57,417 nt of DNA from Candidatus Saccharimonadales bacterium (GTDB lineage Bacteria > Patescibacteriota > Microgenomatia > Levybacterales > UBA12049): NCBI GenBank assembly GCA_035478335.1, contig DATIJS010000033.1:1-57417 (forward strand), in the 5' to 3' direction. Below the pieces are notes generated by a model that did not search any database, was not told the DNA's origin, and saw only the letters and a program-made list of their open reading frames with translations. Made by a program: the position numbers and the translations under genes. Positions 2,974-25,951 of this stretch are shown in pieces. Each line of letters starts with the position of its first letter. Positions within the stretch are counted from its first letter, which is position 1.

Positions 2974-3022
2974 GGAGGTTTTATCGCATTGCTTTAAACC
3001 TCCCCGCAACGGGAGTTTTTTT
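2974..3022 (+). promoter_or_regulatory. Attenuator: mutually exclusive antiterminator and intrinsic terminator
   Basis: GGAGGTTT (2974-2981) pairs with AAACCTCC (2996-3003). Alternatively CTCCC (3000-3004) pairs with GGGAG (3011-3015), followed by T7 (3016-3022). GGGAG is also SD-like, 7 nt before the ilvA ATG. Confidence 0.55.
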
Positions 3023-4279
3023 ATGGATAATATGAATAAAGTAACCGTACAATCAATTGATGAGGCTGCCAAGACGCTTGAAAAAGTAGTTAAAAAAACA
3101 CCGCTTCAATTCAACAAAAGACTTTCTGACTTATATCAAGCCAATGTATATATCAAACGGGAAGACCTTCAAGATGTCAGATCTTTTAAAATCCGTGGCG
3201 CTTACAATAAAATTGCCTCATTGTCATCAAAACAAAAAGAGCATGGAGTTGTAACTGCAAGTACGGGTAACCACGCACAAGGGGTCGCCTACAGCTGCTT
3301 TCTCCTCAAAATAAAAGGAACAATTTTTATGCCAACTGTGATACCAAATCAAAAAATTGAAAAAGTAAAGCACTTTGGCGGAAAATTTATTGAAATAAAA
3401 CTAGTTGGCAACACTTTTGATGATGCTGTTGAAGCATCTTTGGATTATTGTAAAGAAATAAATGCGAATTATGTTCATCCATTTGATGATCCTGTAACAA
3501 TTTCAGGTCAGGGAACTACCGGAAAAGAGATTTATGAGAAACTCGCTGGTGAGGTAGATGTGATCATTTCTCCGATCGGCGGAGGAGGTCTGATATCCGG
3601 AATCTCTACATACGTCAAAACTAAAAATAAAAAGATAAAAGTTTTTGGTGTCGAAGCAGAAGGTGCTGCAAGCATGGAGCAATCTTTACGCACAAAAAAA
3701 ATAGTACCACTTGGAATTTTTGATACTTTTGTTGATGGAGCTGCCGTGAACAAAGTTGGAAATTATGCTTTTGAAATCTGCTCAACACTTGTTGAAAAAG
3801 TGTGCATTGCTAAGGTAGGTAAAATTTGCTCAACCATGATAGATCTTTACCAACAAGAGGGGATAATCGCCGAACCTGCAGGCGCGCTGTCTATCTCAGT
3901 CCTTGATGATTTAAAAAGCGAAATAATAGGCAAAACAGTTGTATGTGTTCTGAGTGGAGGAAACAATGATATTTTGAGATATCCTGAGATTATGGAAAAA
4001 AGTCTTGTTTACAAAGGATTAAAACACTATTTCCTTGTAGAATTTGCACAAAAACCTGGCCAATTGAAGGCTTTTCTCAATCACGCACTTGGCCCCTCAG
4101 ATGATATTGTTTTGTTTGAATATATCAAAAAGAATTCTCGCGAAAAAGGCCCGGCACTCATTGGAATTGAGCTTACAAAGAAAGAAGATTTAACCCCTCT
4201 TCTTGACAAAATGGACAAGCTGCAGATACGATATACCAAGATAGATAGCGATGACCCGCTATATGGATTTGTTCTATGA
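3023..4279 (+). CDS. ilvA: Threonine ammonia-lyase (threonine dehydratase) with one C-terminal ACT-like regulatory domain
   Basis: It shows PLP fold-type II motifs (SFKIRGA, STGNHAQG, GGGGL). The C-terminal regulatory domain reads HYFLVEFAQKPGQL. Confidence 0.9.
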   Translation: MDNMNKVTVQSIDEAAKTLEKVVKKTPLQFNKRLSDLYQANVYIKREDLQDVRSFKIRGAYNKIASLSSKQKEHGVVTASTGNHAQGVAYSCFLLKIKGTIFMPTVIPNQKIEKVKHFGGKFIEIKLVGNTFDDAVEASLDYCKEINANYVHPFDDPVTISGQGTTGKEIYEKLAGEVDVIISPIGGGGLISGISTYVKTKNKKIKVFGVEAEGAASMEQSLRTKKIVPLGIFDTFVDGAAVNKVGNYAFEICSTLVEKVCIAKVGKICSTMIDLYQQEGIIAEPAGALSISVLDDLKSEIIGKTVVCVLSGGNNDILRYPEIMEKSLVYKGLKHYFLVEFAQKPGQLKAFLNHALGPSDDIVLFEYIKKNSREKGPALIGIELTKKEDLTPLLDKMDKLQIRYTKIDSDDPLYGFVL

Positions 4280-4319: not shown

Positions 4320-4697
4320 ATGAAGATAATACAGACAAATAATGCACCCGCTGCGGGCGGCCCATATTCGCAGGCAATAATCTCCGGTAGTTTTGTTTTT
4401 TGCTCAGGGCAGATTGGCCTTGATCCCAAAACCGGTGAGCTAAAAGGAGCTGATATTATTTCCCAAACAACTCAGGTAATCTTCAATTTAAGTGCTGTTC
4501 TTGAAGCAGCGGGATCATCACTACAAAACGTTATTAAGACGACATGCTATCTTACAAATATTTCTGACTTTCAGAAGTTTAATGACATTTACGCAAAACA
4601 CTTTGTTTCAAACCCCGCCCGTGCAACAATAGAAGTATCCAATCTCCCCAAAGATGCAATTGTAGAGATCGAGCTGGTCGCTGAAATTGTGCTATAA
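4320..4697 (+). CDS. ridA: RidA/YjgF family reactive enamine/imine deaminase
   Basis: The 125-aa product begins NAPAAGGPYSQAI..SGQIGLDP..G, typical of RidA. It lies directly downstream of ilvA. Confidence 0.88.
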   Translation: MKIIQTNNAPAAGGPYSQAIISGSFVFCSGQIGLDPKTGELKGADIISQTTQVIFNLSAVLEAAGSSLQNVIKTTCYLTNISDFQKFNDIYAKHFVSNPARATIEVSNLPKDAIVEIELVAEIVL

Positions 4698-4916: not shown

Positions 4917-6014
4917 ATGCAACCAAGACTGCAACGCTACAAAAAATTTATAGATACTCAATTTATCGATAGCCTACTCTGGAATAAGGACTACTCGCTT
5001 TATGGACTGGATAAAAATTTAAGAACCAAAATCGAAGCTGGCCAATTCAAAAATATAATATTTACAGGAATGGGCTGTTCTGCTATTGTCTCTGACGTTA
5101 TCAAAGGATTCTTTGCCAATCAGCAAATATCACTTCATGTTGAGGTATTAAACGATTATCAGTTTGGTTTTCTTGTTGATAAAGAAACTCTCACTGATGA
5201 AAAAACTCTAATTATTATCAGTTCTTACAGTGGATACTCCCAGGAACCGCTTAACTTTTACCAAAACATTAAGGATTTAACGCAAAACGTAATTTTTCTA
5301 ACATCAGGGGGCAAATTAGCCGAAATTGCAAAAAATAATCATGTTTCCTTAATTTATTGGAAATTACGAGAACCAGACCGAGAGTACCCACTTTTTCATG
5401 TTCCACAATATTTCAGCATACTGCTCGATATTTTCGCGGAATTGAAGATGATTAAATCAAATTATTACAAAGAACTAGAAGAATCTGTTGCATTTCTAAA
5501 AAATTATTTTACTGAGGAAAGAATTAAGCTATCCGAGTTAATAGCCGGGAAGTTAAGAGATAGAGAAATTATATTTTTAGCTAATCCAATGTGGTATTTT
5601 ACCTTACTGAAGCTAGCAGATATGCATTTCAATGAAATGTCTATGGCTCCTGCTCACAGAAATTTCTTCCATGAATTTACCCACAGTGAAGTAGCTGTTT
5701 TTACCAATCCCAAAAATAAGCTTGCAATTGTAATATTTAGAGATGCAGAAGAAGACGAATATACAAACGAAAAAATAGATAATCTTGTTTCTATTCTAAC
5801 TGATAAAAATACTGCTCAAAACAAAAATATTGAACTAATCGAAATACACTTGAATCAGGCTAATTTCTTTGAAAAATTCTTCTCCTCGCTTCTTTTCACA
5901 AATTACATTGCTTATTTTTTGGGAATATATAACAAAACTGAATCTAGAGAGCTAATTTCGTTATCAGCAGGAAATCCCTGGTATAATCAGAAAACAATAC
6001 AATCGGAAAAGTAG
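4917..6014 (+). CDS. SIS-domain sugar isomerase, likely bifunctional phosphoglucose/phosphomannose isomerase family
   Basis: It has a SIS-like motif (IIFTGMGCSAIVSDV, IIISSYSGYSQE). Its length and layout resemble archaeal-type PGI/PMI. Confidence 0.6.
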   Translation: MQPRLQRYKKFIDTQFIDSLLWNKDYSLYGLDKNLRTKIEAGQFKNIIFTGMGCSAIVSDVIKGFFANQQISLHVEVLNDYQFGFLVDKETLTDEKTLIIISSYSGYSQEPLNFYQNIKDLTQNVIFLTSGGKLAEIAKNNHVSLIYWKLREPDREYPLFHVPQYFSILLDIFAELKMIKSNYYKELEESVAFLKNYFTEERIKLSELIAGKLRDREIIFLANPMWYFTLLKLADMHFNEMSMAPAHRNFFHEFTHSEVAVFTNPKNKLAIVIFRDAEEDEYTNEKIDNLVSILTDKNTAQNKNIELIEIHLNQANFFEKFFSSLLFTNYIAYFLGIYNKTESRELISLSAGNPWYNQKTIQSEK

Positions 6015-6032
6015 GATGAAAAAATATATTTT

Positions 6033-6614
6033 ATGAACAGATCTGAAGCGTATAGCTTGCTAACCAAATATTTAAATAACAAAAACCTCCTCAAGCACTC
6101 GCTTGCTGCGGAGGTGGCTATGATTGCACTTTACAAACGTCTAACTCCTCAGAATGATCAAAATACTGCTGATGAAGAGAAATGGGGGATTACAGGACTT
6201 TTACATGATGCAGATTATGAGCTGGCTCGAACTTCAAATCAGCTTGACAAACACGGGCTTTTACTTTTTGAAAAAGAACCAGATATTGTTCCAGAAGATA
6301 TTACACATGCGATTAAGTCACACAATTACAAAAATACCAAAGTGTTGCCTGAAAGTCTGATGGACTGGTCTATAACAGCTTGTGATCAGCTGACAGGACT
6401 AATAGTCGCAGCAGCACTCGTTCTACCTGATAAAAAACTTTCATCTTTAACAGCAGATTCTGTGCTCAAACGAATGAAATCACCATCTTTTGCCAAAGGT
6501 GCAGATAGGGAGGCTATAAAGTTTTGCGAGACAGAACTTAAAATCCCGCTTCCCGAATTTGTAGAAATTGTTCTTAAGGCAATGCAGTCAATTAGTGACG
6601 ATTTAGGGCTTTAA
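6033..6614 (+). CDS. HD-domain phosphohydrolase
   Basis: H...HD metal-binding residues are present (KHSLAAE, GLLHDADYE). Confidence 0.7.
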   Translation: MNRSEAYSLLTKYLNNKNLLKHSLAAEVAMIALYKRLTPQNDQNTADEEKWGITGLLHDADYELARTSNQLDKHGLLLFEKEPDIVPEDITHAIKSHNYKNTKVLPESLMDWSITACDQLTGLIVAAALVLPDKKLSSLTADSVLKRMKSPSFAKGADREAIKFCETELKIPLPEFVEIVLKAMQSISDDLGL

Positions 6615-6652
6615 ATTTGACAATATAAACCAAACCTTTCTATACTACTTCT

Positions 6653-6883
6653 ATGAGCCAGCCATATGAAAAATCCAGCCTCAAACTTTCAAGAAAACAA
6701 ATTGTTGTGAATAATTTTGTAGGTGGTCTTTTCTGGGCGCTTGGAGCGACAGTGGGACTGGCATTTATTTTTGCGCTTCTAAGTCTTATTGCAAAAAATG
6801 TTAACCTGGTCCCATTCGTAGGATCATTTGTTTCCCAAGTAATTAATTTCGTCATCTCGCACAACCCAAATCTTCAAAAATAA
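6653..6883 (+). CDS. Small membrane protein (two predicted TM helices)
   Basis: The 76-aa ORF has hydrophobic segments. A TTGACA-18-TATACT promoter ends 6 nt before the ATG. Confidence 0.55.
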   Translation: MSQPYEKSSLKLSRKQIVVNNFVGGLFWALGATVGLAFIFALLSLIAKNVNLVPFVGSFVSQVINFVISHNPNLQK

Positions 6884-6927
6884 CTCAACTCTTTATAATC
6901 AACCACAATTCAGCTATAATTTAATAT

Positions 6928-8679
6928 ATGCAAAAGCAAAACTTAGATGAACTTCGTCATTCAACAGCTCATCTCATGGCGGCAGCTGTACTAGAATTAT
7001 TTCCGGGAACTCAAAACGCAATTGGACCCGCTGTTGAAAACGGCTTCTATACTGATTTTGATTTTGGAGATGTACAAATTTCAGAAACTGACTTTACAAA
7101 AATTGAAGCAAAAATGCGGGAGATTGTTAAAACTTGGAAGAAATTTGAAGTTAAAGAAGTAACTCCCGATGAGGCAAAAAAATTATTTAAACATAATAAA
7201 TACAAAACTGAACTTATTGAGGATCTTGAGAAAAAAGGTGAAAAAATTACTGTAAATAATCCCGGAGGTTTTCTCGATCTATGCCGTGGCGGACATCTTG
7301 ATAATCCTGCAAACGAAATTTCAGCATTCAAACTCCTTTCAATTGCCGGAGCATACTGGAAAGGGTCAGAAAAAAATAAAATGCTGACACGCATTTACGG
7401 AACGGTTTTCCCAACTAAAAAAGAACTGGATGAACACCTCGCAATGCTTGAAGAAGCAAAAATGCATGACCACAAAAAACTCGGCAAAGAGCTTGATTTA
7501 TTTGTATTTTCTGAAACAGTTGGTAAAGGATTACCCCTCTGGACACCAAAAGGATCAACCATTCGCCGTGAACTTGAAAGATTTATTGTTGATGAGGAAA
7601 TTAGAAGAGGCTATCTGCACGTTTACACCCCAGATCTGGCAAATCTTGCTCTTTATGAAAAATCAGGACATTATCCTTTTTATAAAGAATCAATGTATGC
7701 GCCGATCAAAATTGATGACGAGCAGTTTATGTTGCGCCCTATGTCATGCCCGCATCATTTTGAATTATACTTGAGTAATCCTCACAGCTATAAAGAACTG
7801 CCTATTCGCTACGCAGAACTTGCCAAGCTATACAGATATGAACAATCAGGAGAATTGGCAGGATTACAAAGAGTAAGATCGTTTACGCTCGCTGATGCAC
7901 ACATCATTGTCAGTACCGAAGAGTCAGAAAAAGAGGTAAGCAATGTATTGGACCTAATCGATGATGTTTCCAAAATATTGGGAATACAACTAGGAAAAGA
8001 TTATTGGTACAGACTCTCACTTGGGGACAAATTGAATGAAAAAAAATATTTTAAAGATGATGCTTCATGGGATCATGCTGAAAAAGTATTAAGAAATGCT
8101 CTTAAAAAAAGAAATGCGGATTTTGTTGAAGCTGAAGGGGAAGCTGCGTTTTATGGACCAAAAATTGATGTCCAGATGAAAAATGTAAATGGAAAAGAAG
8201 ACACAGCGTTTACGGTTCAGTATGATTTTGTAATGCCAAAAAGGTTTAATTTGAAATATATCAACGCTGCAGGTGAAGAAATCCAGCCTGTTGTAATACA
8301 CAGATCGTCAATTGGGGCTATTGAGCGCATTATGGCATTTTTGATTGAGAAATATGCTGGGGCTTTCCCCACTTGGCTCGCACCTGTCCAAATGATACTG
8401 CTTCCGATTGCGGACAGACATATAGAATTTACAGAAAAAGTAAATAAAGAACTTAGAGAGAAGGGATTTCGTAGCGAAGTCGACACACGCTCTGAGAGGC
8501 TTCAGGCCAAGATTAGGGATGCCGCTTTACAAAAAGTACCTTTTATGGGTATAATAGGGGATAACGAATTGGAAAACAACGCTGTGTCTGTGAGGGCACG
8601 CGGTGGAGAAGACTTGGGATCACTCTCAATTGAATCTCTAATTAATCAGTTACAAGAAAAAATTGATAAGAAAATATAA
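6928..8679 (+). CDS. thrS: Threonyl-tRNA synthetase (no N-terminal TGS domain)
   Basis: The editing-domain motif HSTAHLMAAAV lies at the N-terminus, followed by a class II core and a C-terminal anticodon-binding domain. Confidence 0.93.
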   Translation: MQKQNLDELRHSTAHLMAAAVLELFPGTQNAIGPAVENGFYTDFDFGDVQISETDFTKIEAKMREIVKTWKKFEVKEVTPDEAKKLFKHNKYKTELIEDLEKKGEKITVNNPGGFLDLCRGGHLDNPANEISAFKLLSIAGAYWKGSEKNKMLTRIYGTVFPTKKELDEHLAMLEEAKMHDHKKLGKELDLFVFSETVGKGLPLWTPKGSTIRRELERFIVDEEIRRGYLHVYTPDLANLALYEKSGHYPFYKESMYAPIKIDDEQFMLRPMSCPHHFELYLSNPHSYKELPIRYAELAKLYRYEQSGELAGLQRVRSFTLADAHIIVSTEESEKEVSNVLDLIDDVSKILGIQLGKDYWYRLSLGDKLNEKKYFKDDASWDHAEKVLRNALKKRNADFVEAEGEAAFYGPKIDVQMKNVNGKEDTAFTVQYDFVMPKRFNLKYINAAGEEIQPVVIHRSSIGAIERIMAFLIEKYAGAFPTWLAPVQMILLPIADRHIEFTEKVNKELREKGFRSEVDTRSERLQAKIRDAALQKVPFMGIIGDNELENNAVSVRARGGEDLGSLSIESLINQLQEKIDKKI

Positions 8680-9232
8680 GCCAACACTTAAGAAAACGTA
8701 TAGACTCAATCAGCGCATATTTGCATCCCCTCTAAGGGTTATAGATGCAGAAGGAAAACTAATTGGGGTTATATCGAAATTCGAAGCACTAAAACTTGCC
8801 CAGGAGCAGGGATTGGATTTGGTAGAAATCGCACCAAAAGCTGTTCCGCCGGTTGCAAAAATAGTTGACTTTAATAAGTTTCTTTATCAACAGGAAAAAA
8901 AGAAAAAAGAGGAAAAGAAAAAAGCAAAAGTAAGTGAAACCAAGGAATTAAGACTTGGCCCATTTATGTCTGAGAATGATCTTCAAGTCGTAATCAGACG
9001 GGGAAGGGAATTCTTGGAAGAAGGACACAAATTGAGGTTGGTTCTTAAATTCAGAGGACGGGCAATAGTTCATCCGGAATTCGGACATAAGACAATCGGT
9101 AAGTTGGTGGAATCATTAAAAGATATCTCAAAAATAGACAGGGAAGCACATTTTGAAGGCAAACAATTGGTAGCACTTCTTTCAGCTGAAAAGGGAAAGA
9201 AAACAGAAGAATTAACACAAAAATTAAATTAA
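8663..9232 (+). CDS. infC: Translation initiation factor IF-3, non-AUG start (TTG 8663 or ATA 8666)
   Basis: RLNQRIFASPLRVIDAEGKLIGV is the IF-3 N-domain. There is no in-frame ATG for about 100 codons. It overlaps the thrS end by 17 nt. Confidence 0.88.
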   Translation: MIRKYKPTLKKTYRLNQRIFASPLRVIDAEGKLIGVISKFEALKLAQEQGLDLVEIAPKAVPPVAKIVDFNKFLYQQEKKKKEEKKKAKVSETKELRLGPFMSENDLQVVIRRGREFLEEGHKLRLVLKFRGRAIVHPEFGHKTIGKLVESLKDISKIDREAHFEGKQLVALLSAEKGKKTEELTQKLN

Positions 9233-9233
9233 T

Positions 9234-9446
9234 ATGAAAAAAGCAATGAAAACAAAACAGAAAGTAAGAGGATCTGTCAGTAAGCGTTTTAAAGTGACCA
9301 AAACAGGCAAGGTACAATTTGCGCATCAATTTGGCAGTCACAAAAAGCTGCATAAATCAAAGTCCAGAATCAGACGTCAAAAAGAACCGGGAACATTGAC
9401 AGGTGCATTTGCAAAAAAAGTAAAACAAATGCTCGCAGTAGCATAG
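9234..9446 (+). CDS. rpmI: 50S ribosomal protein L35
   Basis: It is a basic 70-aa protein (KTKQKVRGSVSKRFKVTKTGK) in the infC-rpmI-rplT order. Confidence 0.92.
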   Translation: MKKAMKTKQKVRGSVSKRFKVTKTGKVQFAHQFGSHKKLHKSKSRIRRQKEPGTLTGAFAKKVKQMLAVA

Positions 9447-9456
9447 AAAGGTATTT

Positions 9457-9807
9457 ATGGCTAGAATTAAAAGAGGAGTTGTATCAAAAAGAAGACACAA
9501 TAAGTTGCTTGACCTGACAAAGGGATTTAGAGGTACCAAAAGTACCCTGATTCGTGAAGCAAAGGCAGCAAGTCTTCATGCCGGTCAATATGCCTACAAT
9601 GGCAGAAAAGAACGCAAAAGCGACTTCAGATCTCTTTGGATCATAAGAATCGGCGAGGCAGTAAAGCAACAAGGACTTTCATACAGCGTATTTATCGACA
9701 AATTGAAAAAATCCAACATCGAGCTTGATCGAAAAATCCTCAGCAGCCTTGTACTGGAAGATCCAATTGCGTTCAAACAGGTCGTTGACTTAGCAAAAAA
9801 AGTATAG
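9457..9807 (+). CDS. rplT: 50S ribosomal protein L20
   Basis: The MARIKRGVVSKRRHNK N-terminus is typical of L20. Confidence 0.95.
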   Translation: MARIKRGVVSKRRHNKLLDLTKGFRGTKSTLIREAKAASLHAGQYAYNGRKERKSDFRSLWIIRIGEAVKQQGLSYSVFIDKLKKSNIELDRKILSSLVLEDPIAFKQVVDLAKKV

Positions 9808-9813
9808 TATAAA
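9785..9813 (+). promoter_or_regulatory. Promoter of the aromatic-operon leader (TTGACT-17 nt-TATAAA)
   Basis: TTGACT lies at 9785-9790 and TATAAA at 9808-9813. The leader ATG follows 8 nt later. The -35 element lies inside the rplT 3' end. Confidence 0.55.
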
Positions 9814-9821
9814 CAATATAG

Positions 9822-9905
9822 ATGAACAAATTTGAAGTTAAAAATTGGTTTTATTTTTACTTTACTTCCCAACCCGGGAGGTTGTGTAGTGGTTTAAATA
9901 ACTAA
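9822..9905 (+). CDS. Candidate aromatic-rich leader peptide MNKFEVKNWFYFYFTSQPGRLCSGLNN (27 aa)
   Basis: Codons 9-14 are six consecutive aromatic residues (W F Y F Y F). The ORF runs into the antiterminator, directly upstream of the shikimate/Phe/Tyr operon. Confidence 0.6.
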   Translation: MNKFEVKNWFYFYFTSQPGRLCSGLNN

Positions 9906-9953
9906 CAAAAAATAAACCAAGACCCAAGACCTCCCAAAGCGGGAGGTTTTTTT
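9876..9953 (+). promoter_or_regulatory. Attenuator: antiterminator versus intrinsic terminator
   Basis: GGGAGGT (9876-9882) or GGGAGGT (9941-9947) can each pair with ACCTCCC (9929-9935). An inner helix joins TGGTTTA (9890-9896) to TAAACCA (9913-9919). The terminator has a 5-nt loop and T7 (9947-9953). Confidence 0.6.
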
Positions 9954-9986
9954 ATGATTAATTTTAGAAATTTAAATTATGAATAA
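9954..9986 (+). CDS. Possible 10-codon upstream ORF MINFRNLNYE overlapping the DAHP synthase start
   Basis: ATG 9954 lies 7 nt after GGGAGG. Its TAA (9984-9986) overlaps ATG 9979 of the next gene. Confidence 0.25.
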   Translation: MINFRNLNYE

Positions 9987-10737
9987 AGCAAAAAATATTA
10001 TAATTGCCGGTCCATGCGCAGCTGAATCAATGGAACTAATCGTAGAATCGGCAAAGCAAGCCAAAAAACGCAAGGTCGACTTTCTCAGAGTTAGCTTATT
10101 CAAGCCGAGAACCAAACCAGGCTTTGAAGGAGTAGGAGAAGATGGTATTGATTTTCTCATTGCAGCAGCCAAATTGGGAGTTAATCCCGCAACAGAAGTG
10201 CTTTTCCCTGATCAGGCAAAAAGAATCATGGACAAAGTATTTACTGCTGTGCCGGAAACAAAATTGCTGCTCTGGATCGGTTCAAGAAACCAGCATCATG
10301 TAATCCAGCGTGAAACAGCAAAAATTATTGCTAGTGACAAAAGAGCATATTTGCTTGTAAAAAACCAGCCTTGGAAAAATAAAAAACACTGGGAGGGAAT
10401 TGCCGAACATGCACTTGAAGGAGAAATTGACAGAGATCATCTATACATGTGCCACAGAGGTTTTGCTCCTCATGGATACGAAAACCCGTATGAGATGAGG
10501 AACATTCCTGATTTTGAGATGAGTATGGAAATCAGAGAAGAAACAAAATTGCCTATGATATTTGATCCATCGCATATTGGAGGTACTGTTGAAAATGTCT
10601 TACGGATTGCAAAAGAATCCAAGAAGTATGAATTCGACGGCTTGATGGTAGAGGTTCACATGGACCCCAAAAATGCGATGACTGATGCCGAACAACAGCT
10701 GACATGGGAGCAATTTGATGAATTGGTAAAAAAATAA
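9979..10737 (+). CDS. 3-deoxy-7-phosphoheptulonate (DAHP) synthase, type I-beta, core-only
   Basis: AGPCAAES, KPRTKP and FDPSHIGG motifs match the KDO8P/DAHP-synthase I-beta family. It is the first gene of the aro operon. Confidence 0.8.
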   Translation: MNKAKNIIIAGPCAAESMELIVESAKQAKKRKVDFLRVSLFKPRTKPGFEGVGEDGIDFLIAAAKLGVNPATEVLFPDQAKRIMDKVFTAVPETKLLLWIGSRNQHHVIQRETAKIIASDKRAYLLVKNQPWKNKKHWEGIAEHALEGEIDRDHLYMCHRGFAPHGYENPYEMRNIPDFEMSMEIREETKLPMIFDPSHIGGTVENVLRIAKESKKYEFDGLMVEVHMDPKNAMTDAEQQLTWEQFDELVKK

Positions 10738-10741
10738 GACT

Positions 10742-11815
10742 ATGAAAAAAATAATAGTCAATCTTCCTGATGTCACAAATCATCATTATTCTGTATTAAT
10801 CGGTGTAGATCTTTTTGAAAAAATAGCAGAGATAGTTGATCTGTCTACCTACTCAAATATCGCAATAATTACAGATAAAAATGTTGCAGGCTATTTGGAT
10901 ATTATCCAAAGCAATTTAGCAATTAAGCCGCTCACTATCACTTTGGAACCTGGAGAAAAACACAAAAACACGAAATCGCTTGATATCATTTGGAATGAAC
11001 TTATAAAAACAAAATTTGATAGAAAATCTTTGATTATTAACTTAGGTGGTGGTGTTATTTGTGACATTGGCGGATTTGCCGCGAGTACTTATATGCGCGG
11101 AATTGATTTTATCAATGTACCGACTACTCTTCTCTCACAAGTTGATGCAAGTACAGGAGGTAAAACGGGAATAGATTTTGCAAATCTCAAAAACATTATT
11201 GGAACATTTCAGCAACCTAAAGCAGTAATAATTGACGTCTCAACTCTTGCTACACTGCCCAAAAGCGAACTAAACTCCGGTTTTGCGGAAATAATCAAAC
11301 ACGGACTAATTAGGAATAAAAATTATTTTGAAAAAGTGAGTTCAAAAAAACCCGAAGAGTATTCCAGCGAAGAATTAATTGAAATAATTATAACGTCTTG
11401 TGAGATAAAAAAAGATGTAGTCGAAAAAGATCCAACAGAGCAGGGAATTAGAAAAATTTTAAATTTTGGCCATACAATCGGACATGCAATAGAGTCTCTT
11501 AGTCTTGAAACAGAAACACCCTTACTGCATGGTGAGGCAATTTCTATTGGAATGGTAGCAGAGGCAAAAATGTCAAATTTACTTGGGTTTTTGCCGGAGA
11601 GCGATCTAGAAATTATAAAACAAAGCTTTATTAATGCTAATTTACCGATAAAAACCTTGATCAACTCAGTACAAATAATTGAAAAAATTGAGAAGGACAA
11701 GAAGAATTCGTTTGGAGAAATCAAATGGACTCTTTTAAAACAAATAGGTGAAGCAACCTATGACATTGCAATTGATGAAAAAATTATTAGTGAAGCACTT
11801 GAATACATCTCATGA
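10742..11815 (+). CDS. aroB: 3-dehydroquinate synthase
   Basis: It carries the GGGVICDIGGFAASTYMRGIDFINVPTTLLSQVDAS motif. Confidence 0.92.
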   Translation: MKKIIVNLPDVTNHHYSVLIGVDLFEKIAEIVDLSTYSNIAIITDKNVAGYLDIIQSNLAIKPLTITLEPGEKHKNTKSLDIIWNELIKTKFDRKSLIINLGGGVICDIGGFAASTYMRGIDFINVPTTLLSQVDASTGGKTGIDFANLKNIIGTFQQPKAVIIDVSTLATLPKSELNSGFAEIIKHGLIRNKNYFEKVSSKKPEEYSSEELIEIIITSCEIKKDVVEKDPTEQGIRKILNFGHTIGHAIESLSLETETPLLHGEAISIGMVAEAKMSNLLGFLPESDLEIIKQSFINANLPIKTLINSVQIIEKIEKDKKNSFGEIKWTLLKQIGEATYDIAIDEKIISEALEYIS

Positions 11816-13110
11816 AACAAGTAATCATTTATCCATTAAAAGATAAGATAGACGCAGAAGTCATAATTCCCGGATGTATTGGGTATACAATTCGCGCACT
11901 TAACATTGCTGCTATGACTAGTGGGAGTGTCAAAATTTTAAATCCTTTAAAAAGCGATGATATTTATTCAATGGTAAATGCCCTTAAATCTCTTGGCATA
12001 GAAATTATTGAAAGTGAAAACAATTTCACAGTGATCGGAGATATTAGTGATATAAAAAACAAAAATTACACTATAGATATTGGCCTGTCAGGAAGAACTG
12101 CACGGACACTTTTGGCCTTACTTTGCATTGTTCCCGGTGAAAAAGTTTTAACTTGCCACGAAGAATTTAAAAAACGCCCGGTAGGAGATCTGGTTGAGGG
12201 GCTGAGGCAAATTGGTGCAAAAATTGAATACTTAGAAAAAGAAAATCATCTTCCAGTTAAAATTTCTGATACCTATCTCAACTCGGGAACAATTTCAATG
12301 AATGGAGAACTAAGCAGTCAGTATTTTTCAGCTCTTATGATGATCGCCCCAATTGTCGGGGATATGATAATTAATGTAAATGGTAATCAATCTTCAAAGC
12401 CATTTATAGACATGACTATTGATATCATGAAAAACTTCGGAATAAAAATTGAAAACAATAATTACAAACACTATAAGATTGTGACGGGCCAAACTTATAT
12501 AAATCCGGAAAATTATCTAGTTGAACCTGAAGCAACCAGTGCAAGTTATTTTTGGGCAATGGCAGCTATCACAGAAAGCAAAATAAAAGTCTTAAATCTC
12601 GGACCAAATTCCAGACAGGGTGATATAAAATTTGTTGATGTACTTGAAGAAATGGGCTGCAAGATAAATAAAAACACAGAAGAAAATTGGATTGAAGTTG
12701 AAGGATCAAGGGAGCTTAAAAGTACAAATGCCGACATGAATGACACGCCGGATTTAGTTCCAACGCTTGCCGTTGTTGCTGCATTTGCAAAAGGACAAAC
12801 AATAATAACAAATATTGCCCATGCCAAAATAAAAGAAACAGATAGGATAGAGGCTCCAAAAAATGAACTTTTAAAAATGGGGATAATAGCTGAGTCAACA
12901 GATAGCTCGTTGATAATTAATGGCGGAAGTCCTCTTGGATCAGAAATTGAAACTTACAGCGACCACCGTATGGCAATGAGCTTTGCAGTAGCTGGAACTA
13001 AGATCGCAGGAATTTCTATAAATAATCCGGATGTAGTCAATAAATCTTTTCCTGATTTTTGGAAAAAGCTAGAAGAAATTGGAGTAAAAATTGAGAGGAG
13101 CGCAAATTAA
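11812..13110 (+). CDS. aroA: 3-phosphoshikimate 1-carboxyvinyltransferase (EPSP synthase)
   Basis: The 432-aa product has LSGRTARTLL, SSQYFSALMM and DHRMAMSFAVAG motifs. Confidence 0.92.
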   Translation: MKQVIIYPLKDKIDAEVIIPGCIGYTIRALNIAAMTSGSVKILNPLKSDDIYSMVNALKSLGIEIIESENNFTVIGDISDIKNKNYTIDIGLSGRTARTLLALLCIVPGEKVLTCHEEFKKRPVGDLVEGLRQIGAKIEYLEKENHLPVKISDTYLNSGTISMNGELSSQYFSALMMIAPIVGDMIINVNGNQSSKPFIDMTIDIMKNFGIKIENNNYKHYKIVTGQTYINPENYLVEPEATSASYFWAMAAITESKIKVLNLGPNSRQGDIKFVDVLEEMGCKINKNTEENWIEVEGSRELKSTNADMNDTPDLVPTLAVVAAFAKGQTIITNIAHAKIKETDRIEAPKNELLKMGIIAESTDSSLIINGGSPLGSEIETYSDHRMAMSFAVAGTKIAGISINNPDVVNKSFPDFWKKLEEIGVKIERSAN

Positions 13111-13604
13111 TGAAAATTGTTCTGATTGGCTTTATGGGAGTAGGAAAAAGTAGTGTCGCACCACAGCTGGCTAAAAAACTCGGAATAAATATAATTGAGA
13201 TGGATGATTTTATTGAAAAAAAAGCTGGAAAAACTCTCAAGGAAATTTTTGCAAGTGGGGGAGAAAGCTCATTCAGGAAATTTGAAAATGAAGTTTGTCA
13301 TGAAATAGCAAACATAGATAATGCTGTTATTTCAACAGGAGGAGGAGTTGTTATGAATGCAAATAATTTTACGAGTCTTAAAAATAATTCCACAATTATA
13401 GAACTTAATGCATCTTTTGATACAATTCTTAAGAGAATTAACCAAAAGATACCTAGACCATTATTTAAAGATGAAGAGAGTGCCAAAAAATTATATGATT
13501 TAAGAAAACCATTATATGAAAAATTCGCACAAATTAAAATTTCAACAGATAATAAATCAGTGAGCGAAGTAACTAATGAAATAATTGAAAGTATAAAATT
13601 ATGA
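13110..13604 (+). CDS. aroK: Shikimate kinase
   Basis: It has the P-loop GFMGVGKS, is 164 aa, and sits in operon context. Confidence 0.9.
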   Translation: MKIVLIGFMGVGKSSVAPQLAKKLGINIIEMDDFIEKKAGKTLKEIFASGGESSFRKFENEVCHEIANIDNAVISTGGGVVMNANNFTSLKNNSTIIELNASFDTILKRINQKIPRPLFKDEESAKKLYDLRKPLYEKFAQIKISTDNKSVSEVTNEIIESIKL

Positions 13605-14440
13605 ATATATCAGGCAAAACAAAAATCTGTATGAGCATTGGACATCCAATCGGAAATTCACTTTCACCTCTTATGCATAATACAGGGTTTGAAAAATTGA
13701 AGATAGATAATGAGTATGTTTTTACTGCATGCAATGTAAAACCTGAAAATATTGAAAATTGCATCAAAGGAATCAGAGCACTTGGAATACGAGGCGTTAG
13801 CGTTACAATGCCGCATAAGAAAGCAATCATGCAATATTTGGATGACATTGACGACACAGCGGTACAGATTGGTGCAGTAAACACCATTGTTAATAACGAT
13901 GGTAAATTAACCGGGTTCAACACTGACTGGCTGGGAGTTGTGAATTCAATTCAAAAAGTATCATCATTTGCCGGTAAAAAAGCTCTAGTTCTGGGCGCAG
14001 GTGGCGCTGCTAGAGCTGCAATATTTGGACTTATCAAAATGGGCGCCAATGTAATCATAATTAATCGAACTGACAAAAGCGCCATTGCGCTTGCAGATGA
14101 GTTCTTTTGCGAATATGCACCATATTCCGAGTTGGAAAGGGCAAAGCGTATGGATATCATAGTGAATACAACATCAGTCGGTATGCATCCGGATGAAAAT
14201 CATAGCCCTTTGCCAAAGCAATTTATAACAAAGGAGCAAACTATATTGGACGCTGTATATTTTCCTTATGAAACTCAACTAATTAAAAATGCGAAAGCAC
14301 AAGGAGCTAAAGCAATTCATGGAGCAGAGATGCTTTTGCAGCAAGGACTCGAACAGTTCAAGTTATATACTGGTGTTAATGCGCCGGAGGAAACAATGAG
14401 AAGTGTATTAATTGATCATTTGAAAAAACAGCAAATCTAA
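13601..14440 (+). CDS. aroE: Shikimate dehydrogenase
   Basis: It has SLSPLMHN, SVTMPHK, NTDWLG and GAGGAARA motifs. Confidence 0.92.
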   Translation: MNISGKTKICMSIGHPIGNSLSPLMHNTGFEKLKIDNEYVFTACNVKPENIENCIKGIRALGIRGVSVTMPHKKAIMQYLDDIDDTAVQIGAVNTIVNNDGKLTGFNTDWLGVVNSIQKVSSFAGKKALVLGAGGAARAAIFGLIKMGANVIIINRTDKSAIALADEFFCEYAPYSELERAKRMDIIVNTTSVGMHPDENHSPLPKQFITKEQTILDAVYFPYETQLIKNAKAQGAKAIHGAEMLLQQGLEQFKLYTGVNAPEETMRSVLIDHLKKQQI

Positions 14441-14441
14441 T

Positions 14442-15122
14442 ATGAAGATAATTTACTGTTTACCAATTATTAAGAGCAGGAAAAATGAAGTTTTGGATAT
14501 AATTAATGAAAACATTAATCAATATCTCTACTTTGAAATCTGGCTTGATTATATTGATGATCTTGATGATGAATTTATCAAAAAATTAATTAAACAACTA
14601 GAAGGTAGGATTATATTTTTATTCCGAAGAAAAAATCTGGAAAAAATAAATATGAGTCTTCAAAAAAGGGAAGAGATTATTTACATCCTTGAAGATTCAA
14701 ATTCATACCTAGATCTTGATGTCATTGAACAAAAAGAAGAAATTGACTATATTGAAAAAAGCAGTCTAAAAATTCAAACTATTATTTCTTATCACAATTA
14801 CAAACAAACGCCGACGAATGACAAATTGGGTGAAATTACTGATATAATAATCAAGCATAATCCAAAGATTATCAAACTTTCAACTTTTTGCCGGGATAAA
14901 GCAGATGCGCTCAGTTTATTAAATACACTTTTGGATTTAAAACAGAAAAACAAAAAATATATTGTTTCGGGGATGGGAGAAAATGGTAAAATAGTAAAAA
15001 TATTTGGAGCGCTGTGGGGAAATGAAATGACATTTGCACCATTGGACATCAAAGAGGCATCAGCACCCGGACAGATAGCGAAATCAGATTTAGAAAAAAT
15101 TTTAGGAATACTAAATACATAA
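14442..15122 (+). CDS. aroD: 3-dehydroquinate dehydratase, type I
   Basis: ISYHNYKQTP and KLSTF resemble the type I DHQase pattern, and the operon context supports it. Confidence 0.8.
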   Translation: MKIIYCLPIIKSRKNEVLDIINENINQYLYFEIWLDYIDDLDDEFIKKLIKQLEGRIIFLFRRKNLEKINMSLQKREEIIYILEDSNSYLDLDVIEQKEEIDYIEKSSLKIQTIISYHNYKQTPTNDKLGEITDIIIKHNPKIIKLSTFCRDKADALSLLNTLLDLKQKNKKYIVSGMGENGKIVKIFGALWGNEMTFAPLDIKEASAPGQIAKSDLEKILGILNT

Positions 15123-15144
15123 CGCTTTTACTAAATACTAACCT

Positions 15145-16230
15145 ATGGCTGGAAATACATTTGGACAATTATTTAGAATAACTACATTTGGTGAGTCGCA
15201 TGGCGGCGCGGTTGGTTGCGTAATCGACGGATGTCCACCAAATATATCAATTACACCTGAGGAGATTCAAAAAGATCTAGACAGGAGAAAACCCGGACAA
15301 AGCTCGATTACAACTCCACGCAAGGAAGAGGACGATGTCCAAATTCTCTCCGGTGTTTTTGAGGGGAAAACCACTGGCACTCCAATTCTACTACTTGTCA
15401 AGAATAAAGATGCGCGGCCTGAAGATTACAATATCCTAAAAGGATTGTACAGACCTGGACATGCAGATTATACTTTTGAAAAAAAATACGGTATACGGGA
15501 CTGGCAGGGATCGGGTCGGGCATCCGCCAGAGAAACGCTTGCACGTGTTGCAGCCGGAGCTATCGCAAAAAAATATCTTAAAGAAAAATTGGGAGTGGAA
15601 TTTTTAAGTTACGTTGAACAGGTTGGTGATATAAAAACGGATATTGATTTTAATTCTGTGACGATGGAGCAGATTGAATCAAATATTGTCCGCTGTCCTG
15701 ATACTGAGGTTGGTCAGCAAATGATTGAACTAATTGAAAACGTAAAAGAGGAGAAAGATTCAATTGGTGGTGTAATAAGAGGAGTTATCAAAAATGTACC
15801 TGTAGGTCTCGGAGAACCAGTCTTTGACAAAATCCCATCTGATCTTGCAAAGGCTATGATGAGTATCAATGCTACCAAAGGCTTTGAATTTGGCTCAGGT
15901 TTTGCTGGAGTAACCATGCGTGGAAGCGAACATAATGATGAATTTTATATTGATGAAAATGGAAATGTCAAAACAAAAACAAACTTTGCTGGCGGAACGC
16001 TTGGAGGAATAACCAATGGTAACAACATATATTTCAGAGTAGCAATCAAACCTGTCTCAACTATAGGAAAAAAGCAAAAAACAATTTCAAAAGAAAACGC
16101 AAGTGTTGATCTTGAAGCAACAGGCCGACATGATCCCTGCGTACTCCCACGCGCAGTTCCGATTGTAGACGCAATGAGCGCACTTGTCATAATGGATCAT
16201 TACATGAGACACAAAGCCCAAAATTTATGA
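15145..16230 (+). CDS. aroC: Chorismate synthase
   Basis: It has [24 protein letters not shown]-like and GRHDPCV motifs. Confidence 0.95.
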
Positions 16231-16499
16231 ATGACAAATTATTTGATTTACGAAAAGAGATTGATGAACTTGACCGCGAATTATTAAAAGTAATTTCAAA
16301 AAGAATCAAAAAGGTAAAAGAGGTCGGAGTTATTAAAAAGTCAGCCAATTCTAATATTTTTGATGAGTCTCGCATGAAGCAGGTAGTTGCTAACTGGAAA
16401 GAATTTGCAAAACAGGAAAATTTATCAGAAGAAGTAATTGAGAAAATTTATAAAATAATTCATGATTATTCTCTAGAAATAGAAAAAAATATTAAATGA
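16227..16499 (+). CDS. Chorismate mutase (AroQ class), monofunctional
   Basis: The 90-aa helical protein reads [27 protein letters not shown]. Confidence 0.8.
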
Positions 16500-17638
16500 A
16501 AACATCAAATAGATTGCATCAAATTCCAGAATATATTCATGCACGTCTAAATCAGGAGGTAAAAAAAATAGAAACCCAAACCGGCAGAAAAGTTCTTAAT
16601 TTTGGCCAGGGTTCACCTGATTTTAGAACAAGTAAAAAATATCTTGATAAACTAAATGAGTTTATCCAACAGCCCAAATCTCATGTCTATCCCGGCTATA
16701 CAGCTAGTAAAGAATTTTCTGACGCATTAGTTTTCTGGTACAAGAAACGATTTAATGTAGAAATTAATTCAGAAGAAGTATTACCGCTTCTGGGAGCAAA
16801 AGATGGAATTACCCATTTTCCACTCGCTTTTCTGGATGAAGGAGACGAAGTCCTAATCCCGGACCCTGGATATCCCGCATACAACGAACCCGTAACTCTG
16901 ATTGGCGCAAAACCGGTTCCTTATCTGCTGTTGGAAGAAGATAACTTCAAATTAAGTATTGACCAAATCAAACATAGAGTTACTAAAAAAACCAAAGCTA
17001 TTTGGGTCAACTTTCCCTCCAATCCGACAGGTCAGGTCGCGACACTAGATGAACTTATACCCATTATAAAATTTGCAAAAGAAAAAAATATACTTGTTCT
17101 TTATGACAATGCTTATTCTGAGATAAGCTTTGATAGCTTTTCAGCACCAAGTATTTTTCAGGTAGATTTGGCAAAAGATGTAGCTCTTGAATTTAACTCA
17201 TTTTCAAAATCATGCTCATTTGCAGGCTTCCGAATGGGATGGGTAGTAGGCAGCAAAGAGAATGTAGATGCAATTGCAAAGGTCAAGACTCAAATTGACT
17301 CAGGAATGAGTCTGCCACTTCAGCAACTTGGAGCTTATGCACTAACTCATCAAGATGAAGAATGGAATAAGGATATGCTTGAGAGTTACAAATCAAGAAG
17401 AGATATAATTGCCAAGCATCTTATGTCTTTGGGGTTGAAATTTTCTATTCCAAAAGCAGCACTATACATCTGGGCCAAAATTCCAGATACTGAAAAAAAC
17501 TCAGAGAAATATTGCATGAGAATGCTTAATGAAAAAATGATATTATTTACACCTGGTAGTGCTTTTGGTAAAAACGGCGACAGATTTGTACGAGTTAGTA
17601 TCTGTGTAAATGTTGATGAAATAGATAGATATTTTTAA
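16496..17638 (+). CDS. Class I/II PLP aminotransferase (probable aromatic/prephenate aminotransferase)
   Basis: It has NFPSNPTG and SFSKS..FAGFRMGW motifs. It lies between the chorismate mutase and the TyrA-PheA fusion. Confidence 0.8.
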   Translation: MKTSNRLHQIPEYIHARLNQEVKKIETQTGRKVLNFGQGSPDFRTSKKYLDKLNEFIQQPKSHVYPGYTASKEFSDALVFWYKKRFNVEINSEEVLPLLGAKDGITHFPLAFLDEGDEVLIPDPGYPAYNEPVTLIGAKPVPYLLLEEDNFKLSIDQIKHRVTKKTKAIWVNFPSNPTGQVATLDELIPIIKFAKEKNILVLYDNAYSEISFDSFSAPSIFQVDLAKDVALEFNSFSKSCSFAGFRMGWVVGSKENVDAIAKVKTQIDSGMSLPLQQLGAYALTHQDEEWNKDMLESYKSRRDIIAKHLMSLGLKFSIPKAALYIWAKIPDTEKNSEKYCMRMLNEKMILFTPGSAFGKNGDRFVRVSICVNVDEIDRYF

Positions 17639-17639
17639 T

Positions 17640-18947
17640 ATGAAAAAAGTTACGATAATAGGCTACGGAAGGTTTGGGAAAACTCTTCACAAATTATTGA
17701 AAGATGATTTTGACGTCATGGTTTATCTTCGCAAGAAAACTATTGATAAAGAATTTATCACAACTGACTTAAAAAAAGCTTACGGAAGTGAAGTGATATT
17801 CTATGCAGTTCCAATTTCTTCTTTTGAGGATGTAATTTCCGCACAAAAAAAATTTTTTAAACCAAAACATCTCCTCATTGATGTTCTTTCTGTAAAGTTA
17901 CACCCTAAGAACATATTTGAAAAATATTTACCTGAAAAAACTCAAGCTCTTTTAACACATCCTATGTTTGGCCCAGATAGTAGTAGAGAAGGCTTTGATG
18001 GACTTCCAATCATACTAGATCAATATAAAACAAGTGAGGAAAATTATACTTTTTGGAAAAAATTCTTTGTTAAAAAGAATTTAAATATATTAGAAATGAA
18101 TTCAGATGATCATGATAGGCTTGCCGCAAATTCTCAGGGTTTAACACATTTTATAGGAAGATTGCTGGATGAATTTGGTACTGAGAAGTCATCAGTTGAC
18201 ACAATCGGCGCAAAAAAATTAATGGAAGTCAGAGAGCAAGTCTGTAACGATACTTGGAAATTGTTTATCGATCTTCAGCATTTTAATCCATATACAAAAG
18301 AGATGAGAATTAAACTTGGCGCATCATATGATAACCTTTACAATAAATTGATTCCCAAGCAAGCGAACAAAGAATTTATAACCATTGGAATTCAGGGAGG
18401 AAAAGGAAGTTTTAACGAAGAAGCAATAGAATATTATGTTAAACGAAATAAAATAGATAAGTATAAAATCAAATATTTACATACATCTGAATCTGTACTA
18501 AACGCTCTTCACGTTGGAGATATCGATTTGGGACAATTTGCTATTCATAATTCAACTGGTGGAATAGTAGGGGAAAGCATTGATGCGATGGCAAAATATA
18601 AGTTTAGGATCGTTGAAGAATTTGCAATAATTATATCCCATGCTCTGATGATCAGAAAGGATGCAAAGCTTTCCGATATAGATACTATCATGACTCATCC
18701 ACAAGTCCTTGCCCAGTGCAAAACAAATCTTTCTGAAAAATATCCCAATCTAAAACAGACTTCCGGAGAAGGAGAGTTAATTGACCATGCACTTGTAGCC
18801 AAACACCTGTCAGAGGGAAAAATTGCAAAAAATATTGGAACCATGGGAAGCAAAATTCTGGCGGAGATTTATGGCCTACAAATTGTTGAAGATAATCTGC
18901 AGGACTTGGCCAAAAACTTTACAAGCTTTTTAGTAGTAGAAAGATAA
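17640..18947 (+). CDS. Fusion protein: prephenate/arogenate dehydrogenase (N) and prephenate dehydratase (C), no ACT domain
   Basis: The N-terminal half has IIGYGRFG, HPMFGP and HDRLAANSQGLTH (TyrA). The C-terminal half has IGIQGGKGSFNEEA, THPQVLAQC and NFTSFLVV (PDT). The ORF ends right after the PDT domain. Confidence 0.8.
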   Translation: MKKVTIIGYGRFGKTLHKLLKDDFDVMVYLRKKTIDKEFITTDLKKAYGSEVIFYAVPISSFEDVISAQKKFFKPKHLLIDVLSVKLHPKNIFEKYLPEKTQALLTHPMFGPDSSREGFDGLPIILDQYKTSEENYTFWKKFFVKKNLNILEMNSDDHDRLAANSQGLTHFIGRLLDEFGTEKSSVDTIGAKKLMEVREQVCNDTWKLFIDLQHFNPYTKEMRIKLGASYDNLYNKLIPKQANKEFITIGIQGGKGSFNEEAIEYYVKRNKIDKYKIKYLHTSESVLNALHVGDIDLGQFAIHNSTGGIVGESIDAMAKYKFRIVEEFAIIISHALMIRKDAKLSDIDTIMTHPQVLAQCKTNLSEKYPNLKQTSGEGELIDHALVAKHLSEGKIAKNIGTMGSKILAEIYGLQIVEDNLQDLAKNFTSFLVVER

Positions 18948-18971
18948 AATCAATCTCATTATAATACAACT

Positions 18972-20003: not shown

Positions 20004-20005
20004 TT

Positions 20006-25876: not shown

Positions 25877-25951
25877 CTCCCTTATAATCGAATAAATATT
25901 TATATGATTTTCGGCATTGCCTCTGGATGACAAAAAAGTATAATAGTAACT

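Follow-up and report, generated by a model that had tools for sequence, protein, structure and literature searches.

A putative aromatic leader-peptide attenuator in front of the shikimate/Phe/Tyr operon of a Patescibacterium

Patescibacteria are usually described as organisms with little amino-acid biosynthesis and sparse regulation, so how would a member of this group control a complete operon for the synthesis of phenylalanine and tyrosine? This question is raised by a contig of 57,417 nucleotides assigned to Candidatus Saccharimonadales bacterium (DATIJS010000033.1, assembly GCA_035478335.1; the whole stretch is called the window below), in which a gap of only 171 nt separates the ribosomal protein gene rplT from a DAHP synthase gene that opens a shikimate/Phe/Tyr operon. 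An initial annotation, made from the sequence alone, had placed a leader peptide with a run of aromatic codons and a transcription attenuator in this gap. After following up this proposal computationally, we think that the gap and its surroundings hold a transcription attenuator that works through a ribosome on a leader peptide, as in the classical trp/phe systems, and would sense the supply of aromatic aminoacyl-tRNA; judged from sequence-based evidence, we put the probability of this reading at roughly 85%.

The leader region and its four RNA segments

The leader begins within the 3' end of the preceding gene. A -35 hexamer, TTGACT (9785-9790), lies in the last codons of rplT and is separated by 17 nt from a -10 hexamer, TATAAA (9808-9813), which is followed after 8 nt by the ATG (9822) of a 27-codon open reading frame (ORF) at 9822-9905, encoding MNKFEVKNWFYFYFTSQPGRLCSGLNN. 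Six aromatic codons in a row, TGG TTT TAT TTT TAC TTT (WFYFYF), occupy 9846-9863. Promoter, ORF and codon run were found exactly where the initial annotation had located them.

The segment that had been overlooked, region 1 (ACUUCCC, 9864-9870), begins at the base right after the last aromatic codon and can form seven pairs, closing a 5-nt loop, with 9876-9882 in region 2 (GGGAGGU(U), 9876-9883). Region 2 has an alternative partner in region 3 ((AAG)ACCUCCC, 9926-9935, with ACCUCCC at 9929-9935), which serves both as the 3' arm of the antiterminator and as the 5' arm of the terminator, and region 4 (9941-9953) supplies the other terminator arm (GGGAGGU, 9941-9947) and a T7 tail (9947-9953). 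The two GGGAGGT copies and the single ACCTCCC from which the attenuator had been deduced are thus present, and the claimed trp/pheA geometry stands as far as the alternative pairings are concerned; it gains with region 1 a putative anti-antiterminator. A helper hairpin (UGGUUUA/UAAACCA, 9890-9919, arms 9890-9896 and 9913-9919) is nested within the antiterminator, and the terminator conformer can accommodate it too; relatives have an equivalent apical hairpin of different sequence.

The distal pairing keeps its interpretation as an intrinsic terminator, its stem now extended to 10 bp. This hairpin (9926-9950, followed by U7; -14.7 to -15.3 kcal/mol) ranked first among terminator-like sites in the 15 kb between 6000 and 21000, and it is one of only three strong sites of this kind in the whole window. 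The 57 kb contain 6 copies of GGGAGGT or its complement where 2.2 are expected; three of the six fall within this 72-nt stretch, and a fourth lies in a second attenuator upstream of ilvA, which is described below. When 9815-9960 was folded, as had been suggested, the minimum free energy (MFE) structure (z = -2.8) was the terminator conformer with the 1:2 hairpin, the helper hairpin and the 3:4 terminator. Altogether, the gap combines an ORF rich in codons for the end products, an intrinsic terminator, an antiterminator that excludes it, and an anti-antiterminator whose 5' strand would lie under the footprint of a stalled ribosome.

Conservation, covariation and the controlled genes

To see how far these elements are shared, we considered 80 loci with relatives of the DAHP synthase gene, one per GTDB species, 75 of which were usable for counting upstream ORFs. 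An aromatic-run small ORF was defined by at least 5 aromatic residues in 7, within 450 nt upstream of the gene. Such ORFs were present in 56 of the 75 upstream regions as compared to 68 of 1744 control windows (3.9%), and for runs with 7 of 7 aromatic residues the counts were 12/75 and 0/1744, respectively; the codon run is therefore conserved upstream of orthologous operons, as the initial annotation had predicted for a genuine attenuator. The leader peptides of the relatives have 14-27 residues and differ in both termini, in length and in the position of the stop codon. What they share is a core consisting of an FYFYF- or FWFYF-type run followed by T-S..G-R, the residues encoded by the 1:2 hairpin. 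Of 41 leaders, all except one have a GC-rich hairpin with a T-run that starts 36-71 nt after the codon run. With rplT upstream in only about 15 of the 80 loci, the element is to be assigned to the aromatic operon rather than to rplT. In Vampirovibrionales genomes, too, DAHP synthase has this layout in front of it, and there the antiterminator is longer.

The pairing between region 2 and the terminator 5' arm was evaluated in its own right. In the window this duplex reached -14.1 kcal/mol (z = -5.0), with none of 200 shuffles as good, and across 40 loci the mean z against shuffles was -3.1. In every one of these 40 loci the terminator 5' arm had its best upstream partner 10-12 nt past the final aromatic codon. 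When the first 10 nt were masked and the RNA was cut off ahead of region 4, pairing to the region-2 site took up 85% of the terminator 5' arm on average. Moreover, the 23-nt segment after the run paired with its own terminator arm at -11.8 kcal/mol as compared to -9.2 kcal/mol for segments from loci with a different terminator type (Wilcoxon p = 1e-7, permutation p < 1e-4).

Covariation was examined with a covariance model (R1) that was built with only the 1:2 and 3:4 helices. Statistics were taken from the resulting model-based alignment of 53 sequences (A4), while a plain MAFFT alignment (A2), in which regions 3 and 4 were misregistered, served only as the seed of the model. At E <= 0.005 R1 matched 48 of the 80 loci, a number that rose to about 64 at E <= 1. 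On A4 the terminator conformer had 83.7% of its cells paired and double (compensatory) changes at 13 of 14 pairs, and it scored 0.339 versus 0.192 in shuffled alignments (0/500 as high) and at most 0.17 in slid registers. By helix, double changes were seen at 7/7 pairs of 1:2 and at 6/7 pairs of 3:4, the latter with 91.9% of cells paired. The antiterminator helix 2:3, to which the alignment had not been fitted, was paired in 75.6% of cells with double changes at 7/7 pairs, and it scored 0.188 versus 0.121 when shuffled (0/500) and at most 0.142 in slid registers. Compensatory changes in the GGGAGGT/ACCTCCC elements are thus found for terminator and antiterminator alike, and together with the duplex energies they uphold the proposal that the proximal pairing, reinforced by TGGTTTA/TAAACCA, is an antiterminator. 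RNAalifold returned only the terminator from A4, because 1:2 and 2:3 compete.

Promoter-like sequences also recur at a fixed place. The best promoter upstream of the 41 leaders scored on average 9.2 out of 12, as opposed to 6.8 at random anchors, and its -10 hexamer ended 5-13 nt before the start codon in 71% of the leaders and at 20% of the random anchors. The codons (V/I)-D-(L/S) that form TTGACT are found in other relatives with rplT upstream as well. Because the spacing between -10 hexamer and start codon is conserved, the ORF has no Shine-Dalgarno sequence, and such sequences are rare genome-wide (a Shine-Dalgarno-like sequence precedes 10 of the 58 genes in the window), the leader is likely translated from a leaderless or nearly leaderless mRNA. 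Elsewhere in the window, many first genes (thrS, pheS and others) carry a TATAAT-like hexamer 6-8 nt before their ATG (e.g. 6892-6930, 18937-18974 and 25930-25954), which suggests that leaderless mRNAs are widespread in this genome.

At the other end of the leader, the terminator is joined to a start codon. A mini-ORF encoding MINFRNLNYE (9954-9986) starts right after the U-tract, 7 nt downstream of the GGAGG of region 4, and its 3' end overlaps the DAHP synthase ATG at 9979, which suggests that the two are translationally coupled. In 17 of 29 Patescibacteria loci the T-run is immediately followed by ATG or GTG, again with the region 4 GGAGG 7-8 nt upstream. Such a start belongs in part to mini-ORFs of 7-10 codons whose stop overlaps the DAHP synthase start; those in L006, L008, L034 and L035 (L numbers denote individual loci) have 7-8 codons and an ATGA overlap, and in L013, L018 and L020 the DAHP synthase ATG itself directly follows the T-run. 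With moderate confidence we propose that region 4 doubles as a Shine-Dalgarno sequence, so that the antiterminated conformer would free the ribosome-binding site.

The genes downstream are those of a shikimate/Phe/Tyr operon, as originally reported, with Pfam assignments for each gene. The ten genes on the forward strand (9979-18947), closely packed or overlapping, encode DAHP synthase (9979-10737), aroB, aroA, aroK, aroE, aroD and aroC, followed by a chorismate mutase, an aminotransferase and a prephenate dehydrogenase/dehydratase fusion; by these assignments their products are chorismate, Phe and Tyr. The last gene (17640-18947) codes for one protein of 435 residues with an N-terminal prephenate dehydrogenase domain and a prephenate dehydratase domain, an apparent TyrA-PheA fusion that would unite both branch enzymes in one polypeptide. 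pheS and pheT (18972-21892, forward strand, Pfam) begin 24 nt past the last aro gene and possibly belong to the same transcription unit; a promoter-like site (18937-18965) lies just before pheS. Upstream of the leader, the thrS-infC-rpmI-rplT cluster runs from thrS (6928-8679) to rplT (9457-9807, stop codon 9805-9807). An identical DAHP synthase sequence is present on a contig of the metagenome-assembled genome (MAG) GCA_964419385.1 and in three Logan assemblies, with contigs in SRR9179560, SRR9179562 and SRR9179563, and the nearest named relatives of the enzyme are from Candidatus Levy-, Davies- and Roizmanbacteria (Patescibacteria, Microgenomates group).

Several further features of the related loci were recorded. 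Four species-representative loci (L043, 1270-1615; L045, 2055-2400; L052, 2738-2974; L081, 1436-1678) carry a tandem pair of complete aromatic attenuators at E <= 0.005, with a separate ORF and terminator for either one, and weaker second matches occurred in L048, L067, L070 and L073; the tandem hosts are Roizmanbacteria-like and other genomes. The first gene after an aromatic leader is often a PfkB-family sugar kinase (L033, 2063-2977; L019, 1176-2971; also L137, L121, L124 and L133), which stands before DAHP synthase or aroB, at times with a class II fructose-bisphosphate-type aldolase gene in between. Finally, a block TTGACG-N(1-3)-GTAAA recurs after region 2 in leaders of Patescibacteria and Vampirovibrionales (e.g. 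L059, 2910-2925; L040, 2845-2860). It is part of the helper/antiterminator stem and contains stop codons in several frames, and its version in the window has diverged to GTGTAGTGGTTTAAAT.

How the switch would work and what else could explain the locus

The helix energies of the window leader are -9.7 kcal/mol for 1:2, -12.2 for 2:3 (9876-9883/9928-9935), -15.3 for 3:4 and -4.3 for the helper hairpin; the whole terminator conformer has -29.3 kcal/mol and the antiterminator conformer -19.7. The leader was also folded under constraints, with ribosome footprint masks at successive A-site positions. An A site on 9858-9863 led to 2:3 pairing, and any A site from 9864 through the stop codon at 9903 led to the terminator. 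With region 1 masked the two conformers were about isoenergetic (-19.6 vs -19.7 kcal/mol), and therefore the order of synthesis decides, which means that the 2:3 helix, made earlier, wins.

On this basis the following course of events can be proposed. Transcription would start at or a few bases from the leader ATG, from the promoter that overlaps the end of rplT, and a ribosome would translate the leaderless 27-codon ORF. When Phe-tRNA or Tyr-tRNA is scarce, this ribosome would stall at the last aromatic codons (about 9855-9863) and cover region 1, so that region 2 is left free to pair with region 3 once the latter has been made, helped by the nested hairpin at 9890-9919. The 2:3 helix would block the terminator and let RNA polymerase enter the ten aromatic-biosynthesis genes and probably pheST. 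With ample charged tRNA, or when the ORF is not translated at all, 1:2 would form, and a ribosome that reaches the stop codon would fill the stretch between regions 2 and 3; 3:4 could then form, and RNA polymerase would stop at about 9953, within the U7 tract. Read-through from thrS-infC-rpmI-rplT would be halted by this terminator (9926-9953) as well. A second layer of control is likely, in that only the antiterminated conformer would expose the GGAGG ribosome-binding site of the mini-ORF coupled to DAHP synthase.

A number of observations weigh against this account or restrict it. The loci are phylogenetically related, so that the shuffle statistics given above (0/500 for each conformer) overstate independence and should be taken as counts and not as probabilities. 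Transcripts ending before region 4 have 2:3 as their MFE structure even without a ribosome, and in several full-length leaders the MFE structure is a nested 1:4 plus 2:3. Equilibrium folding therefore discriminates poorly, and the switch must be kinetic, with 1:2 forming first, as in E. coli trp; a thermodynamic switch is not what our modeling is taken to indicate. The Trp codon (9846), like stalls at the first aromatic codons, is too far upstream for a ribosome to mask region 1, which makes Phe and Tyr the likely effective signals. The first GGGAGGT and the stop codon do lie inside the ORF, as initially noted, and the idea that a ribosome reading through would melt the antiterminator has to be refined, since the stop codon lies 21 nt beyond region 2, which is not the case in trpL. 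A terminating ribosome would instead cover 9888-9917, between regions 2 and 3, while 1:2 could re-form behind it. The -10 hexamer, TATAAA, does not end in the usual T and is for this reason absent from the promoter-scan listing, and with no Shine-Dalgarno sequence in front of the ORF, its translation depends on the presumed leaderless initiation. Lastly, aromatic-rich small ORFs are frequent in this AT-rich window, where 21 have at least 5 aromatic residues in 7. The run alone consequently proves little, and it is its combination with the other elements and their conservation that decides.

This last point bears directly on one alternative, in which the hairpin is the plain terminator of the thrS-infC-rpmI-rplT operon, and the aromatic ORF and the GGGAGGT repeats are products of chance in an AT-rich genome. 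The abundance of such ORFs would agree with this, as would the fact that there is no other terminator between the rplT stop codon (9807) and the hairpin. Ending upstream transcripts is compatible with an attenuator, however, and probably happens as well. Given that ORF, complementary region and terminator accompany DAHP synthase where rplT is absent, that aromatic-run ORFs are so strongly enriched upstream of this gene, and that region 2 covaries with the terminator arm, we regard chance as very improbable. Conservation of the small ORF for the sake of its product, a functional hydrophobic micro-protein, is barely worth entertaining: the peptide core FYFYFTS..GR is indeed well conserved, but what is conserved after the run tracks the RNA helices (ACUUCCC encodes T-S and GGGAGG encodes G-R), termini, length and stop position vary freely, and leaders whose runs consist of Ile or Thr codons use this RNA platform with a different peptide.

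The alternative hairpins by themselves do not reveal what flips them, and control by uncharged tRNA in a T-box-like manner, by a small-molecule riboswitch or by an RNA-binding protein of the TRAP or PyrR kind has to be considered. Aromatic and pheST operons of Firmicutes are under T-box control, and the trp operon of B. subtilis is regulated by TRAP. Here, an Rfam search of 6000-21000 at E <= 10 returned no T-box, riboswitch or ribosomal-protein leader, the sole match being a sub-threshold Phe_leader. The leader comprises only about 130 nt, with a core formed by the codon run in frame with a start codon just after the promoter, and runs of Ile or Thr codons go with ilvA/ilvE or ThrRS genes, as a codon-reading sensor predicts. 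We therefore hold a sensor that bypasses translation to be quite unlikely. We likewise consider unlikely a mainly translational switch with little termination, in which 3:4 hides the GGAGG and the adjacent start codon until translation of the leader opens it. The exact placement of ATG or GTG after the T-run, the scarcity of Shine-Dalgarno sequences elsewhere in the genome and the similar arrangement at ilvA speak for it. On the other hand, a GC-rich stem followed by 6-8 U residues is a canonical intrinsic terminator, its U-tract is nearly invariant, and Vampirovibrionales keep the terminator even though their DAHP synthase gene starts 40-110 nt further on, with apparent separate Shine-Dalgarno sequences. 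Most probably, the transcriptional and translational layers coexist in the proposed attenuator.

Related leaders and comparison with known systems

The same design is seen in front of other genes. In the window, a promoter (TTGACA 2889-2894, 18-nt spacer, TATCAT 2913-2918) is followed after 7 nt by a leader ORF at 2926-2970 that encodes MKRQGSIISIIINS, with 5 Ile in 6 codons. After this ORF come, in order, AGGAGGUUU, AAACCUCC and a CUCCC..GGGAG hairpin (3000-3015) with a tail of seven U residues; region 2 is AGGAGGTTT (2973-2981) and region 3 is AAACCTCC (2996-3003). The ATG of the threonine dehydratase gene ilvA (3023-4279) directly follows the T-run, and a gene for a RidA homologue (4320-4697) comes next. 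R1 matches this attenuator weakly (22.8 bits), and its terminator is weak as well, being missed by the terminator scan of the whole window and found through the survey of Shine-Dalgarno sequences. On minus strands of related loci, a Thr-codon leader (MKHVFVTTTTTASF) precedes a ThrRS-like class II synthetase gene followed by infC (L130, 7045-7001), an Ile-codon leader (MTHKALSFIIIITNPA) precedes a class IV (IlvE-type) aminotransferase gene (L082, 718-668), and MSSKDIKFLIALLLTP precedes the gene for a 686-residue protein without a Pfam match (L099, 11932-11882).

Two other places in the window deserve mention. No Thr-codon leader was found before the window's own thrS; the space holds a hydrophobic ORF of 76 codons (6653-6883), which is preceded at a distance of 6 nt by a promoter-like TTGACA-18-TATACT (11/12; the whole region spans 6617-6883). 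Another of the three strong terminator-like sites, AACCTCC-TCGG-AGGTT with a T-run (39656-39641, minus strand), is situated between the minus-strand genes 39682-40149 and 38773-39585.

These cases raise the possibility of a lineage-wide family of leaderless attenuators with a common, stereotyped build in Patescibacteria, extending to Vampirovibrionales for the aromatic version, with codon runs swapped according to pathway, a Shine-Dalgarno sequence inside the terminator, and orthology to proteobacterial pheM. We consider this whole construct tentative and somewhat doubtful. If it were true, F/Y/W codons would serve aro and pheST, Ile codons ilvA and ilvE, and Thr codons thrS. A single switch would control transcription as well as translation, because the terminator's 3' arm would act as the Shine-Dalgarno sequence of the first cistron. 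The rplT-adjacent F/Y/W leader would be an ortholog of pheM in an ancient position, into which the aromatic operon was inserted later.

For Patescibacteria, the window would provide an example of a full shikimate/Phe/Tyr operon governed by a classical sensor that works without a regulatory protein. Rfam lacks this family, whose short ORFs probably go unnoticed or are wrongly annotated in MAGs; R1 could be used to annotate these leaders and would help to predict which members from the candidate phyla radiation (CPR) regulate Phe/Tyr synthesis. Leaderless translation and a Shine-Dalgarno sequence within the terminator, both predictions, are concrete hypotheses on gene expression in organisms that cannot so far be grown alone. 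A survey from 2010 gave Proteobacteria and Actinobacteria as the only groups then known to have leader-peptide systems and added the Firmicutes, of which a few were documented (PMC2965389); the inclusion of Patescibacteria and Vampirovibrionales would widen this range further. A literature search found no paper on leader-peptide attenuators in Patescibacteria/CPR, and one on pheM yielded nothing pertinent to the lineage, so that the mechanism, ordinary in itself, appears new in this lineage as far as that search shows.

Among the systems described in other bacteria, two come from the Actinobacteria. In Corynebacterium glutamicum, which offers a functional precedent, the aroR leader (Phe-Tyr-Phe) attenuates an operon that, like the one in the window, has a DAHP synthase gene (aroF) first, and ribosome stalling at its Phe/Tyr codons raises transcription; a response to limitation of Phe and not of Tyr was reported (Neshat et al. 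2014, as summarised in PMC11802643). The likeness to this F-Y-F leader from another phylum is one of description. Mycobacteria possess leaderless polycysteine short ORFs acting as attenuators, in which the regulatory ORF senses one amino acid (bioRxiv 10.1101/834739). As described there, they differ from the window leader in sensing Cys, in their actinobacterial hosts, and in the downstream mechanism and RNA.

Closer structural parallels are found in E. coli. The trpL leader operates by a four-segment 1:2/2:3/3:4 logic with kinetic competition between 1:2 and 2:3 helices of similar stability. The window leader shares this logic, with the difference that in trpL the position of the stop codon allows the ribosome to occupy region 2. 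Rfam returned no family at gathering score for the window or for 20 related loci; RF01859 (Phe_leader), whose gathering score is 55, matched 9834-9956 below it with 39.4 bits (E = 0.0011). In the reverse direction, R1 gave 34.9 bits for pheM, the best match in 19 kb of E. coli DNA, and 29.2 bits for pheL, while trpL (14 bits, from the terminator part only) and hisL (12 bits) were not counted as matches. In pheL, an ORF with Phe codons ending in ACC-UUC-CCC is followed by GGGAGG and then by a GCCUCCC/GGGAGGC terminator, much as in the window. It likewise controls Phe biosynthesis, but with Phe codons only and for the single gene pheA.

The most extensive resemblance is to pheM, the leader of the E. 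coli pheST operon, for which attenuation is established (cited in PMC11802643). Like the window leader, pheM lies directly after rplT in a thrS-infC-rpmI-rplT cluster, and before pheST; its peptide resembles the ...WFYFYFTS... of the window, and the RNA plan is alike, with a region 2 GGAGGCU followed by AGCCUCC/GGAGGCU and a U-tract. The alignment of R1 with pheM contains several non-canonical pairs in 1:2, however, and what the two leaders have in common is of low complexity. The window leader differs from pheM in that ten aromatic-biosynthesis genes stand between it and pheST, its run mixes Phe, Tyr and Trp codons, its promoter overlaps rplT without a separate rplT terminator, and it is apparently leaderless and has no Shine-Dalgarno sequence, whereas pheM has a 5' untranslated region. 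Gene orders of the pheM kind also occur in metagenome contigs, where a pattern scan yielded 49 matches, seven of which were not leaders (L090, L101, L106, L117, L120, L122 and L129). The order rplT, leader, one small ORF and pheS was present in L094, L103, L113 and L134, with pheT next where the contig extends; other leaders preceded aromatic operons that start with DAHP synthase or a PfkB-family kinase, or followed trpA. The ORF between terminator and pheS in those four contigs, and in L110 and L127, has 75-105 codons, is poorly conserved and carries a very strong Shine-Dalgarno sequence (e.g. AAGGAGGTGA and GAGGAGGTGA). From its sequence and position, the window has the appearance of a pheM-type attenuator in which the aromatic operon stands between leader and pheST, and this resemblance at the rplT-pheS position raises the question of how old the attenuator is.

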